This document shows positions 3,072 through 7,005 of a DNA stretch of 64,000 nucleotides, piece by piece. Source of the DNA: Candidatus Poribacteria bacterium (GTDB taxonomy: Bacteria; Poribacteria; WGA-4E; PCPOR2b). The stretch lies in the NCBI GenBank assembly GCA_965116925.1, contig OZ220744.1:992001-1056000 (forward strand). The letters are read 5' to 3'. Every line of letters begins with the position of its first letter. Positions within the stretch are counted from its first letter, which is position 1. The translations under genes were made by a program, and so were the position numbers. The notes beneath the pieces were generated by a model. It ran no database searches and was not told the origin of the DNA. It saw nothing but the letters and a program-made list of their open reading frames with translations.

Positions 3072-3623
3072 ATGTATTGGAAATTGTTTTGCTTGTTCAG
3101 CCTCATCCTCTGCTTGCTATCATTTTTCGGATGTTCAGACGATACAAGCGACAAAATGACAGATACCGGCGATGTAAATGAAGATTCATCGTTTCAACTT
3201 GCCCCTAATTTCACGCTGCTGAACACAGAGCTGGAAGAAGTTAGCCTCTCTGATTATCAGGGTAAAGTTGTTATTGTGGATTTCTGGGCGACATGGTGTA
3301 AACCTTGCGAGGAAGAAATTCCACGCTTCATTGAACTATACGCCGAATATCGAGCGCAAGGATTTGAGATGATCGGTATCTCAACGGATGATGTAGAAGG
3401 ACGTCTAAAAAGTATTGAACTTTTCTTTCAGGAACTCAGTAAAGAAGGCTTCGACATCAATTACCCGATTCTTCTAGCAGCGTCCGACGTTATTCAAAGC
3501 TATCAAGTGCCTGTACTACCGTCCGCATATCTTATCAATCGTGATGGAGAAATTGTAAAGGTGTTCAGCGGTGCACAAGAAGATAAAGCAACCTACGAAA
3601 GCGAGTTAAAAAAATGGTTATAA
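3072..3623 (+). CDS. TlpA-family thiol-disulfide oxidoreductase lipoprotein
   Basis: APNFTL...GKVVIVDFWATWCKPC; signal ending FFGC. Confidence 0.92.
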   Translation: MYWKLFCLFSLILCLLSFFGCSDDTSDKMTDTGDVNEDSSFQLAPNFTLLNTELEEVSLSDYQGKVVIVDFWATWCKPCEEEIPRFIELYAEYRAQGFEMIGISTDDVEGRLKSIELFFQELSKEGFDINYPILLAASDVIQSYQVPVLPSAYLINRDGEIVKVFSGAQEDKATYESELKKWL

Positions 3624-5047
3624 GAGATGGACTAAATAAAATTCAACTAATGATGGTTTTGGCGGCTGCTCTTATGTTGTGCCTTAGTTGCGGCAGCGAC
3701 GACGAATCTATCGTGGAACCGGATACCTCCGTGGAGCCAGACACATCAACCGGGGAGCCTGATCCTGTTGCTGCAACAGGCAGCCTAAAGGGAACGGTCG
3801 ACAAGATTGACGGTATCTCAGTGGCTATCCGCGTCCTACAAAATGGCAATGCCGTTGCCTCTGCTACAGCGGATGCCGATGGAAACTACCAAATTGATAA
3901 TATTGCACCGGGGACTTATACAGTCGAAATTGGCGCGAAGGGATATGAAACTGCCAAACAAACCGTTCAGGTTAGCGCGGATAAAGTTGCATCGCTGGAT
4001 AGAGCGGTGCTCAAGGAGTTAGAAATCCCCGTTGCCCATATCCAAGGCACCTTATCTGATCGACTAAAGGGAAGTCCCCTTAGCAACGTCCGCGTTCGAC
4101 TTGTTGATGCAGCGGGTAATTCCCGCGAGGTGTTGACGACGCAAACGGGTGCCTATCAATTTGAAAATGTCCCCACAGATCAGCGATTCACCGTCATCGT
4201 CCAGCTTGACGGGTTTGAAAAGGAGGAGTTTTCTGTTGATCCAATCGCAGCTGGCCAAACCACTATGTTGGACATCGCGCTTGATGCGTCTCTCCTTATT
4301 CGCGGGCTCGTACTAGATCAGGTCACGAAAAAACCTGTTGTCAATGTGCGTGTTCAATTAACCGATGGAGCAGGGGCTGTCTTGGAAACAGCAACAACGG
4401 GGTTGGGTGCCTTTGAGTTTGAAGGGGTTACACCGGATCCGCAACTTACGCTTACTATTGAGTCCAATGAACATGAGAAACTCGAATTGCCTGTTGGTTC
4501 CATTGGAGGCGGAACGGAACATTTCGATCTCCAGCTTATTCCGCTCAACCCGGAGCAACTTCCAGAAGGCGATGGTCTTGCTATTGGCTTGAAAGCGCCG
4601 GACTTCAACCTGCCTAATAGTGATGGGGAGATGGTAGCCCTTGCAGATTACGCAGGCGAGCAAAAGGTTGTGCTCGTCTTTGACCGCGGTGGATGGTGAG
4701 GTTCATGCATTGTGCAACTCGGAGAGTTGCAACAAGATTATGCAGCAATTCAGGCGGCGGGGGCTGAACTTCTCGCAATCAGCACAGATAACGCAGCACA
4801 GGCAAAGAAGGCGATTGCGGATGTTAAAAGGCGGGTTGGCGTTGAAATTGAATTTCCGCTGCTTGGAGACCCGGAATTGAAGGCAATTAATGCGTACAAC
4901 GCAAGGGATCCACTAAATCCTCGGATCGCACGTCCCATGACCTACATCATTGATGAGAGCGGGGTTATCCGCTGGAAATTCCTTGATGTGCGCGTTGGAA
5001 ACCGGCTGAAGGGCGATAGGATTGTGGCGGAGTTGAAAAGTTTGTAG
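3614..5047 (+). CDS. Predicted selenoprotein lipoprotein: three carboxypeptidase-regulatory-like domains plus AhpC/TSA (Prx-like) domain with UxxC; Sec UGA at 4697-4699
   Basis: ORFs 3614-4699 and 4712-5047 are in frame: APDFNL...VLVFDRGGW-TGA-GSCIVQLGELQ...RPMTYIIDESGVIRW; hairpin just downstream; signal ending CLSC. Confidence 0.85.
4710..4735 (+). promoter_or_regulatory. Putative bacterial SECIS element
   Basis: tgcaactc-gga-gagttgca perfect 8-bp stem (4713-4731), extended by ttg/caa; G-containing loop starts 22 nt after the UGA. Confidence 0.7.
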
Positions 5048-5108: not shown

Positions 5109-5342
5109 ATGTTAAACGTTCAATTTGAAAGTGTGTCTGAAAACCGTGTCTTAATACCTAAGGGGACTCTGGAAAAGCTAATCCAGTTAGCTAGCCAAGT
5201 TGATGAAATTGAAATCAATGAGATATGTGATAAGACGCAAGCAGAACGTGGTTCGCTGCAAGGGATTTGGAAGGGAAGTCAAGTCAGTGAGAAGGACCTA
5301 CTTGATGCTCGCCGTACTCTTTTTACCTATGAGGAGCCTTAA
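5109..5342 (+). CDS. Putative antitoxin of a type II PIN (VapBC-like) pair
   Basis: 77 aa; stop overlaps PIN start (TAATG); RGSLQGIWKG motif like small PIN partners. Confidence 0.65.
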   Translation: MLNVQFESVSENRVLIPKGTLEKLIQLASQVDEIEINEICDKTQAERGSLQGIWKGSQVSEKDLLDARRTLFTYEEP

Positions 5343-5640
5343 TGAATTATGTGACTGATACGCACGCAATCGTCTGGTATTTCGCAGACGATCCGAGGCT
5401 AAGTCCAAATGCGCGTCTAGCTTTTGAGCAAACAATAACAGTTGGTGTGATTATTATTCCTATCATTGTGTTGGCTGAGATAATGTACATCTCCCAGAAG
5501 GGAAGAATTTCTATGACCTTTGAAGAAACTCTTTCCCATATTGAGACGTATGAGAATTTTCGCATTGCCGCATTGGACCTTGATATTCTTGGGGTTGCGG
5601 CGAACGTTGGCGGCGATTTAGAAATGCACGATAAACTATA

Positions 5641-7005
5641 CTAAAGTTTAGACAATTTTAATGCAAAAAGGCAGAAAAGAGGTTATCCTTTCAGAAATCC
5701 ATCACAATTTTGAAAGGAGAAGTTATGTACCTCATATTCTGCCTGAATGCTATTTTAACCGATTTTCGTCCGTTATTCAAGTCTCAAAACTTTCATCTGT
5801 TTTGTGTCTTTGTTGTGGGACTTATCACACAGCGCGAAGGTGCGACGCTGACCGGCATTTATCAAGCGGTTCGTCCGAAAACGGGTTACCACTCGCTGGT
5901 GAAGTTCCTTTCGCGTGGCAAGTGGGACGCCGATAGAGTCGGTCACCATCTGCTGAAGTTGTTACAGAGGTGTTTCGATAACTGGGTCTACGTTTACGAT
6001 GAGACGCACGCACGAAAGACCGGCGAGACACAATTTGGACTTCATTTTTTCAGGAACCATCGCTATCACACACGCAACACGAATCAATCGAAGTTTCACC
6101 ATGGTCATCAGTTTGGTGCATTGGGATTACTTTGTAGCACCGTCCACGAGACGATACTTTTTCCGGTGTTTGTCAAGTTGATGTGTCCACAGACAAAGCG
6201 CGACACTAGTGAGTCAGTCCTCAAACGGATGTGCAGCCGCATCCCTGCGGGACTGATTATCTTTGACCGGGGATTCGCTCGACAGAAAGTGTTTGGCTGT
6301 GTCCTTAAAGCGGGACATCACCTGTTGTGTCGTGCCAAGTCGAATGCAGTGTTCTATCGGTTACCTACCGCTGCCAAGCAATCCAAACCCGGCAGACCTA
6401 AGAGATACGGCAAACGGATTCATCTGCCGTATCTGCGGTATAAAACGACTGACATTGACGACAAACAGTATGCCATAGCAAGTATAGTCGCCCGAACCAA
6501 AATGTGTCCACAACCCGTTCGGGTCGTGGTGATGCGAACGCGTGACAAAAGGCGTAAGCCGTTTCGATACTTCTGTGTCTTTACCACTGACTTAACTCTA
6601 GATTTACCGCAGATTGTTCGATACTACCAAAAGAGATGGTTGATTGAGACCGCCTTTCGGGACACCAAGCAACACTTCGGATTTGACACCTATCGGGTCA
6701 AGTGTCGAAAAAGTATCAATCGGTTTGTCCAACTCAGTTTCATAGCCAGTTGCATGACCCAACTGTTATTCGCTGTCACTTCCCATACTGACACGCCGGT
6801 AACCATCGAGCAGGTAACTCAGACATTGGGCATTGATTGGTATCGACCCGCTAAGTTGACACGCGGGTTGATGGTGCGGTATCTACGGACTTTAATGGAA
6901 AACCGATTAGTTTCTGCGATGTTCGGTAAAAACATCAATGCCGACGATATTCAACAAACCCTTGATACGGCTACATCAAGAAAATAAAAATTGTCTAAAC
7001 TTTAG
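5641..7005 (+). mobile_element. IS4/IS701-like insertion sequence
   Basis: Perfect 19-bp TIRs CTAAAGTTTAGACAATTTT (5641-5659, 6987-7005); 9-bp TSD TAAACTATA at 5632-5640 and 7006-7014. Confidence 0.93.
5725..6987 (+). CDS. DDE transposase (IS4/IS701-like)
   Basis: YVYDET, IFDRGF and YQKRWLIETAFRDTK (Y-2-R-3-E-6-K); ATG after AAGGAG. Confidence 0.92.
   Translation: MYLIFCLNAILTDFRPLFKSQNFHLFCVFVVGLITQREGATLTGIYQAVRPKTGYHSLVKFLSRGKWDADRVGHHLLKLLQRCFDNWVYVYDETHARKTGETQFGLHFFRNHRYHTRNTNQSKFHHGHQFGALGLLCSTVHETILFPVFVKLMCPQTKRDTSESVLKRMCSRIPAGLIIFDRGFARQKVFGCVLKAGHHLLCRAKSNAVFYRLPTAAKQSKPGRPKRYGKRIHLPYLRYKTTDIDDKQYAIASIVARTKMCPQPVRVVVMRTRDKRRKPFRYFCVFTTDLTLDLPQIVRYYQKRWLIETAFRDTKQHFGFDTYRVKCRKSINRFVQLSFIASCMTQLLFAVTSHTDTPVTIEQVTQTLGIDWYRPAKLTRGLMVRYLRTLMENRLVSAMFGKNINADDIQQTLDTATSRK

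Follow-up and report, generated by a model that had tools for sequence, protein, structure and literature searches.

The gene at 3614–5047 (+ strand) of a 64,000-nucleotide (nt) stretch of a Candidatus Poribacteria genome (contig OZ220744.1, positions 992,001 to 1,056,000; hereafter the window) almost certainly encodes one selenoprotein of 477 amino acids (aa). Its internal UGA would be read as selenocysteine (Sec, U), as indicated by the selenium machinery of the host genome and a conserved signal after the codon. The predicted product is an exported lipoprotein that carries a thioredoxin-fold redoxin head with a U-x-x-C motif on a stalk of three CarboxypepD_reg domains. The best explanation of these features as a whole, with a probability of roughly 0.55, is a lipid-anchored exported Sec enzyme that reduces envelope thiols at the tip of its stalk. 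Coordinates without a prefix are window positions, and C1 coordinates refer to the contig of the host genome (G000).

A single reading frame across an in-frame TGA

On translation, the frame contains a single internal stop, the TGA at 4697–4699 (+), which corresponds to residue 362 and lies within the sequence F-D-R-G-G-W-U-G-S-C. Translation table 11 yields two frames, one of 361 aa and one of 111 aa starting at GTG 4712. Pfam matches comprise three stretches of CarboxypepD_reg (E = 2.7e-35) and an AhpC-TSA domain at residues 324–454 that spans the TGA (E = 2.1e-27); across the Sec site, PF00578 scores 95.9 bits against a cut-off of 26. The TGA aligns with a Cys in homologue P0179 (31% identity), namely the first one of R-G-A-W-C-P-I-C. 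These results bear out an earlier note on this DNA, made from the sequence alone, which had placed the TGA at the first Cys of an RGGW-CxxC motif and proposed 477 aa with Sec at 362. Its expectation that standard annotation splits the gene also holds, as the protein collections searched contain the product as two halves only: 105 of 106 matches span at most 69% of the redoxin domain, and the best coverage among the 75 matches of a whole-protein search never exceeds 76% of the protein.

Conservation was assessed in 56 homologous genes from 47 loci in 40 Poribacteria genomes. Left out of this set were L095, L040 (genes identical to those of L078), and L039 (G017:C2:3547872-3549215), a congener's copy that keeps the TGA at the site and is frameshifted, either as a pseudogene or through an assembly error. 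The stop at the site is TGA in 56 of 56 genes, and Cys (Cys365 in the window, 4706–4708, +) follows three codons on in all of them as the second residue of the U-x-x-C motif, while the x-x dipeptide varies (GS, PT, PS, PF, PH, or IF). Full-length orthologues contain one TGA. The script that assembled the 56 genes retained only matches with a stop near the motif; without that filter, TGA is present in all 30 best loci, and the stop-free matches are TlpA-type proteins only. The homologue check proposed in the earlier note thus supports Sec, with TGA in close relatives and Cys in the distant P0179.

Across a phylum sample, a redoxin-domain query finds a match in 143 of 151 genomes, often in two to five copies. 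Among the matches listed (185 lie beyond these) there is exactly one TGA per match, a figure that gives the number of TGA codons and not their position. Purifying selection acts on the part 3′ of the TGA, with ratios of nonsynonymous to synonymous substitution rates (dN/dS) of 0.04–0.23 3′ of the hairpin described below between the window gene and its homologues. Assembly contigs of four sequencing runs from three studies (X2, X3, X6, and X7) cover the TGA codon without change; those of X6 and X7 have three third-position differences just 5′ of the codon and none listed within 4691–4824. Among 114 TGA sites of the host genome with coding-like sequence on both sides, this one ranks first. In family f6, two genomes without a selB match also lack a redoxin match, which fits, at n = 2. 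Four selB-positive genomes likewise lack a redoxin match, and G040, which is 80% complete, has TGA copies with no selB found.

The host genome contains selA, selB, selC, and selD, the genes for which the earlier note had proposed a search. The first two and the tRNA-Sec gene are grouped at C1:2373929-2377461, and selD, which has an in-frame TGA of its own, lies at C1:6018631. Profile matches of the Sec machinery exceed curated cut-offs, and the tRNA-SeC anticodon is TCA. Six of the 20 AhpC-TSA matches in this genome contain TGA.

A conserved hairpin after the TGA

Right 3′ of the TGA lies an in-frame hairpin (4713–4731, +) that resembles a bacterial selenocysteine insertion sequence (SECIS) in this placement and in having a G in a small apical loop. 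As the earlier note had described, eight Watson-Crick pairs (4713–4720 with 4724–4731) enclose a GGA loop (4721–4723), the first base of which is 22 nt past the TGA. The core reads CAACTC-GNN-GAGTTG. The loop begins with G in 55 of 56 genes; only six stem pairs are kept family-wide, and the outer G-C pair occurs in 32 of 50 distinct rows. Pairing is kept in 94.6% of 350 cells, compared with 15–49% in slid controls, and two-sided changes are found in seven cells at three of seven pairs (0 of 500 shuffles), figures that are support rather than a probability because the sequences are kin and the stem was taken from the window.

Codon use in the stem is frozen. Leu+7 is CTC in 49 of 54 genes, compared with 19.6% elsewhere in these genes, Glu+9 is GAG in 51 of 52 (35.2% elsewhere), Leu+10 is TTG in 54 of 56 (18.4%), and the stem codon CAA appears in 52 of 56 (57.1%). 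In each of 10 comparisons with the window gene, codons +6 to +11 have a synonymous rate (dS) of 0, as against 0.23–0.79 downstream of the stem codons and 0.50–0.77 in the stalk. Stems with at least eight Watson-Crick pairs and a 3–5 nt loop starting with G, located at nt 18–25, follow 25 of the 12,619 host-genome stops that end frames of at least 100 codons (TGA, 7/4806; TAA, 16/4205; TAG, 2/3608). A genome scan for hairpins only is unspecific, with 940 of 13,256 TGA junctions satisfying a loose rule.

The redoxin head

The C-terminal head (4577–5044, +) is an AhpC/TSA-type thioredoxin-fold redoxin domain. An AlphaFold model built on a 22-row alignment (mean predicted local distance difference test score (pLDDT) of 85.7; predicted template modeling score (pTM) of 0.55) begins with a signal helix and a disordered tether, which lead into three beta-sandwiches and then a thioredoxin fold; residue 363 is the first of the active-site helix. 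Foldseek superposes the head on AhpE and Bcp with a root-mean-square deviation (rmsd) of about 2 Å over about 160 columns. In the mature protein, Cys365 is the sole Cys besides Cys26.

By its defining features, the head is classified as a member of the peroxiredoxin-like (Prx-like) UxxC family (PF00578). Excerpts of three papers place this family among selenoproteins: PMC1088965 (2005) already counts a UxxC ‘Prx-like protein’, with UxxC instead of TxxU, among the known families, PMC2398784 describes Prx-like selenoproteins (‘Prx-like 1’) as abundant, and Table 1 of PMC13188914 gives a Prx-like thiol:disulfide oxidoreductase (PF00578, UxxC/UxxU) as ‘predicted with high confidence’. The window protein shares with these Prx-like UxxC/UxxU selenoproteins the PF00578 domain, the thioredoxin-like UxxC, the in-frame hairpin with G in a small apical loop, and an occurrence in marine bacteria. 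In contrast to them, it has a lipoprotein signal, a tether, and three CarboxypepD_reg domains N-terminal of the redoxin domain.

The closest solved folds are those of Bcp/PrxQ and AhpE (PDB 2cx3, 1xvw, and 3hjp), whose peroxidatic Cys aligns with Cys365; unlike these enzymes, the head lacks the Pro, Thr/Ser, and catalytic Arg of the Prx site. The P-x-x-x-T-x-x-C/U motif of peroxiredoxins is absent, its Pro being replaced by Arg or Ile and its Thr by U. The Prx Arg position is occupied by Pro in 52 of 54 pattern-matched genes and by Arg in none of the 54. The residue before that Pro is Arg in 46 of 54; in the window, the two are Arg440-Pro441 (4931–4936, +), with the Pro at the thioredoxin cis-proline position in an alignment to Bcp 2cx3. 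Cis-Pro versus Arg divides thioredoxins and cytochrome-maturation proteins from peroxiredoxins, according to an excerpt of PMC2757866. Judged by these residues, the head is not a true peroxiredoxin, and a thiol-disulfide reductase appears more likely because the thioredoxin-type Pro replaces the Prx Arg. The label Prx-like UxxC given in the earlier note fits a known selenoprotein family, with this one correction.

The protein resembles ResA, TlpA, and CcmG in its membrane-tethered thioredoxin fold and redoxin extension, in its dithiol-type motif, and in having Pro at the cis-Pro site. It differs from them in having Sec for the first Cys, R-G-x-W-U-x-x-C instead of W-A-x-W-C, a long stalk, and scores under the model cut-offs. 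The NCBIfam models for ResA (44 bits, cut-off 170), TlpA (20 bits, cut-off 230), SelL-related, WAxxUGC, PrxU, deiodinase-related, and Prx proteins all score far below their cut-offs. Deiodinase membership is rejected, since the match (E = 6e-4) is confined to residues 321–376 and reaches 19 bits against a cut-off of 250. Profile searches return no DsbA- or DsbC-type match to the redoxin.

Lipid anchor, tether, and stalk

The N-terminus (3614–3691, +) reads as a signal peptide with a lipobox-like C-L-S-C that ends in Cys26 (3689–3691). Export and lipidation of the product are very likely, given the model helix at residues 2–24, a nearly invariant Cys26, and the presence of Lgt and LspA in the genome. 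A relaxed lipobox pattern is found in 48 of 56 genes, and seven of the other eight have an N-terminal redoxin. An acidic, Pro/Thr/Ser-rich flexible tether of 29 aa follows (3692–3778, +), with pLDDT below 50 at residues 22–52. The stalk (3779–4543, +) comprises three tandem CarboxypepD_reg domains (PF13620; prealbumin-like beta-sandwiches) at about residues 56–135, 141–224, and 227–310. It is modeled as all-beta with pLDDT of about 90, and its second and third domains are 38% identical. For the stalk, Foldseek ranks a TIE adhesin and an ancillary pilin (PDB 6fwv and 4oq1) highest. These share the tandem beta-sandwich build; global superposition is poor (rmsd 18–22 Å), and the window protein differs from them in having a redoxin head and a lipid rather than a sortase anchor.

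The lipid anchor and three spacer domains described in the earlier note are supported for the window gene; the number three is not a fixed trait of the family. Among the 56 genes, 13 have three CarboxypepD_reg domains, 12 have two, 17 have one, and 14 have none. Those with none include (i) stalk-less lipoproteins (L076 and L077), (ii) Big_5-type immunoglobulin-like (Ig) repeat lipoproteins of up to about 840 aa (834–842), and (iii) genes in which an N-terminal redoxin is attached to other domains. Within the genus, the tether measures 39–65 aa in eight of eight one-domain forms versus 19–29 aa in 11 of 11 three-domain forms, and a longer tether on a shorter stalk fits a spacer role. A redoxin-only tree suggests that stalk number changed repeatedly within the genus, but an approximately unbiased (AU) test on the last domain plus the redoxin lends this no support (p = 0.19).

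Tandem arrays of two or three selenoredoxin genes with differing stalks occur at L078, L091, and three loci of family f2 (L076, L077, and L079), where the arrays contain three selenogenes. L091 reads as a single frame in which two Sec redoxin domains precede a C-terminal domain; in the relatives L083, L084, and L093 the latter domain has no Pfam match.

No Cys form of the stalk-plus-redoxin fusion is found among the 75 whole-protein matches, for which 8000 candidates of 262–835 aa were scored, a number that stops short of proving such fusions absent. A cluster-representative search is dominated by giant repeat proteins, and none of its best 150 matches has its best stretch in the redoxin past the TGA site.

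Gene neighborhood

Two genes precede the selenogene on the same strand. The first gene of the cluster (1941–2966, +) encodes a Ycf48/BNR-repeat beta-propeller with a lipoprotein-like signal (five PSII_BNR matches in Pfam, E = 6e-50), and its true start is probably somewhat downstream of 1941. The second (3072–3623, +) encodes a TlpA/ResA-like Cys thioredoxin lipoprotein with W-C-K-P-C, a candidate redox partner, and overlaps the selenogene start by 10 nt. Both genes are likewise found ahead of the selenogene in 14 of 14 genus-level loci as well as in L078, L087, and L088, and tlpA adjoins the selenogene in eight of eight family-f3 loci. Contigs of the RNA libraries X6 and X7, which belong to one study, cover all three genes at about 95% identity; they are not counted as proof of expression, because they show neither strand nor a single transcript. 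A promoter and terminator scan gives no excess over shuffles (4 vs 4.1 and 4 vs 3.7).

Other features were observed around the cluster. At L064, the beta-propeller gene and the selenogene are separated by three tlpA copies in tandem. In the window, a short palindromic intergenic repeat resembling repetitive extragenic palindromic elements occupies 1826–1870 and has about 100 genome matches (96 of at least 25 nt). A PIN-domain frame at 5342–5644, apparently cut short at 100 aa, is followed by a DDE transposase at 5710–6987; a PIN gene also lies 3′ of the selenogene in three of 14 genus-level loci and in L087.

Proposed mechanism

In the proposed pathway, SelB carrying Sec-tRNA would dock on the in-frame hairpin, and Sec would be incorporated at the UGA. 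Export from the cytoplasm would depend on the signal peptide, and anchoring through Cys26 on Lgt and LspA. The head is probably located in the periplasm or at the outer membrane, since the genome has Omp85-family genes (eight matches). There, the selenolate at the start of the active-site helix may react with a disulfide or sulfenic acid of the substrate, and the adduct would then be resolved by Cys365 as a selenenylsulfide, a step suggested by the U-x-x-C motif plus the cis-Pro and modeled on the chemistry of ResA/TlpA and thioredoxin. Re-reduction could be provided by DsbD, which the genome encodes in complete form, either directly or through the adjacent TlpA lipoprotein, as gene content and order suggest. 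The stalk would serve as a spacer that sets reach, consistent with its variable make-up. A reductase of thioredoxin type that acts on disulfides or sulfenic acids of the envelope, with electrons from DsbD that perhaps pass through TlpA, is favored at slightly better than even odds.

Weighing the alternatives

Several observations count against this account or parts of it. Concerning the Sec signal, (i) the 56 genes are relatives, not independent samples, and the stem was defined from the window's own sequence, (ii) folding z-scores are modest and vary with the stretch folded (−1.2 for 64 nt, −2.4 for 46 nt, and −3.2 for 34 nt), (iii) the lowest-energy fold over 94 nt lacks the hairpin and prefers another structure, and (iv) a Shine-Dalgarno-like GAGGT overlaps the TGA, 9 nt before GTG 4712. 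Concerning the architecture, (v) the lipobox has an atypical Cys at −3 and conforms to the relaxed pattern only, (vi) the model, with a pTM of 0.55, does not show an extended shape, and (vii) the tether-length contrast may reflect one event, as a single origin is not rejected (p-AU 0.19). Concerning function, (viii) the solved domains nearest in sequence and fold are the peroxiredoxins Bcp and AhpE, (ix) an Arg is conserved just before the cis-Pro, and (x) no TlpA gene was found next to the tandem arrays of family f2 or next to L089 and L090, which are paralogues.

Points (viii) and (ix) speak for peroxidase activity. The same selenoprotein could be an extracytoplasmic peroxidase whose direct substrates are H2O2 or lipid peroxides and whose recycling falls to the neighboring TlpA. 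Sec reacts fast with peroxide even without the Prx triad, and Arg440 lies beside the active-site loop. The site itself, however, has neither P-x-x-x-T-x-x-C nor an Arg at the Prx position, the Prx NCBIfam models all score far under their cut-offs, and another exported protein of the genome, a T-x-x-U peroxiredoxin, does exceed the cut-off of the Bcp model. A peroxidase role is rather improbable.

It is unlikely that the protein is a disulfide oxidase or isomerase folding exported Cys proteins, for example clients of the co-encoded beta-propeller. An exported U-x-x-C with cis-Pro would suit any thioredoxin-fold dithiol enzyme, and both the variable x-x dipeptide and the conserved gene cluster are compatible with such a role. 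The domain, however, belongs to the AhpC-TSA/redoxin type, and the exported members of that type (ResA, TlpA, and CcmG) are reductants according to an excerpt of PMC2757866, and DsbA- and DsbC-type matches are absent from the profile searches.

A surface-displayed reactive head on an adhesin-like stalk, acting on thiols, disulfides, or halogenated aromatics of a sponge host, is quite doubtful. TIE proteins bear a reactive head on their stalk, and a TIE adhesin and a pilin are the best fold matches of the window stalk. Ig-repeat stalks of relatives bring those proteins to 834–842 aa, several of the runs that contain the stretch are sponge metagenomes, and a faint deiodinase-family match exists (E = 6e-4). 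Against this, the stalk matches are distant and reflect a generic repeat fold, the deiodinase match is the short one rejected above, and stalk-less forms exist (L076 and L077). In the improbable event that Poribacteria do display selenoenzymes on exchangeable adhesin-like surface stalks that act on host disulfides or halogenated aromatics, they would possess a selenium-based host-interaction module across most of a symbiont class, with its reach set by stalk length, unseen in current annotation.

It is very improbable that the TGA is a true stop, whether because the gene is a pseudogene, because the sequence is in error, or because two genes lie here (one for a stalk protein of 361 aa, one for 111 aa from GTG 4712). 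Gene callers split the gene at the TGA, the Shine-Dalgarno-like GAGGT precedes the GTG, and one congener (G017) has a frameshifted copy; yet the TGA is kept throughout the order, the sequence on either side of it is under purifying selection, only six of 56 genes have a start codon at +5, both halves would be broken pieces of one fold, and the contigs of four runs retain the TGA. Genome-wide reassignment of UGA to Trp or Gly, or readthrough as another residue, has nothing found in its favor and a negligible chance, since TGA is an ordinary stop that ends 4806 host-genome frames of at least 100 codons, coding-like continuation is no commoner after TGA than after TAA or TAG (114, 109, and 104), Cys is the residue aligned with the site, and the genome has a dedicated tRNA-Sec.

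Other selenoprotein candidates in the host genome

Fifteen further candidate TGA sites were hand-picked from the host genome, and 13 of them, read through, match or belong to a family; the candidates at C1:4957004 and C1:3893558 were rejected for want of a family match. The candidate TGAs on C1 include those at 2541663, 6018658, 671329, 1886420, 150426, 3775202, 5526204, 4745540 and 4745993, 1526837, 2098070, and 4721121. The corresponding candidates comprise FdhA, SelD, a PrdB-like protein, UGSC, a DUF3179 lipoprotein, an exported thioredoxin with tetratricopeptide repeats, an exported thioredoxin immediately upstream of dsbD, a tandem Prx with two Sec, and three more Prx-like proteins.

A short cobalamin-independent methionine-synthase-like gene (PF01717; G000:C1:6017161-6018270, +; L099:262-1371) has an in-frame TGA in H-L-U-R-G-N. 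The TGA and a hairpin are kept in 13 of 13 orthologues (including L113–L124), selD lies within the same fetched locus in 10 of the 13, and seven of seven distant homologues have Cys at the site with weak folding there. That Cys is presumably a Zn ligand. This candidate is more novel than the selenoredoxin lipoprotein. Two additional in-frame TGAs, each with a short hairpin, are found in a DUF5069 protein (Y-P-U-P; C1:4898682, L103) and in a Uma2-type protein that may be a pseudogene (C1:985341, L100). The selenoprotein Table 1 of PMC13188914 contains none of the PF01717 methionine-synthase-like, DUF5069, and Uma2 families.

Novelty and significance

The lipid anchor, the variable stalk (zero to three CarboxypepD_reg or Ig repeats), and the three-gene lipoprotein cluster seem new, while the enzyme type has already been predicted. 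Fusions named for Prx and Prx-like selenoproteins in an excerpt of PMC2398784 are others (PP2C-like, Secretin_N-like, and unidentified domains), and ‘carboxypeptidase’ is absent from the main text of PMC13188914 and PMC12013277. The literature searched, which excluded subscription papers, yielded no paper on a lipoprotein-stalk-selenoredoxin fusion, and full-text searches returned no paper on Poribacteria selenoproteins or selenocysteine that was on topic by title. Poribacteria are unmentioned in the main text of PMC13326102 and PMC12013277. The BSepDB database or the supplements of those papers may already hold these genes.

Export of a selenoprotein has a precedent in SaoB, SaoX, and SaoC, signal-peptide families with selenoprotein members of which SaoX and SaoC are mostly lipoproteins (excerpt of bioRxiv 10.1101/2022.07.06.499078); their folds and gene context are unrelated to those found here. 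Of the unusual exported fusion proposed in the earlier note, the stalk arrangement remains as the unusual part, and export as such does not. One more UxxC redoxin would not surprise a selenoprotein specialist. Since the enzyme family is predicted rather than characterized, however, any biochemistry would be new. The finding corrects the annotation of a gene family matched in most sampled genomes of the phylum and shows that Poribacteria carry many selenoprotein candidates. Stalk variation together with the conserved three-lipoprotein cluster makes for a testable envelope redox system.

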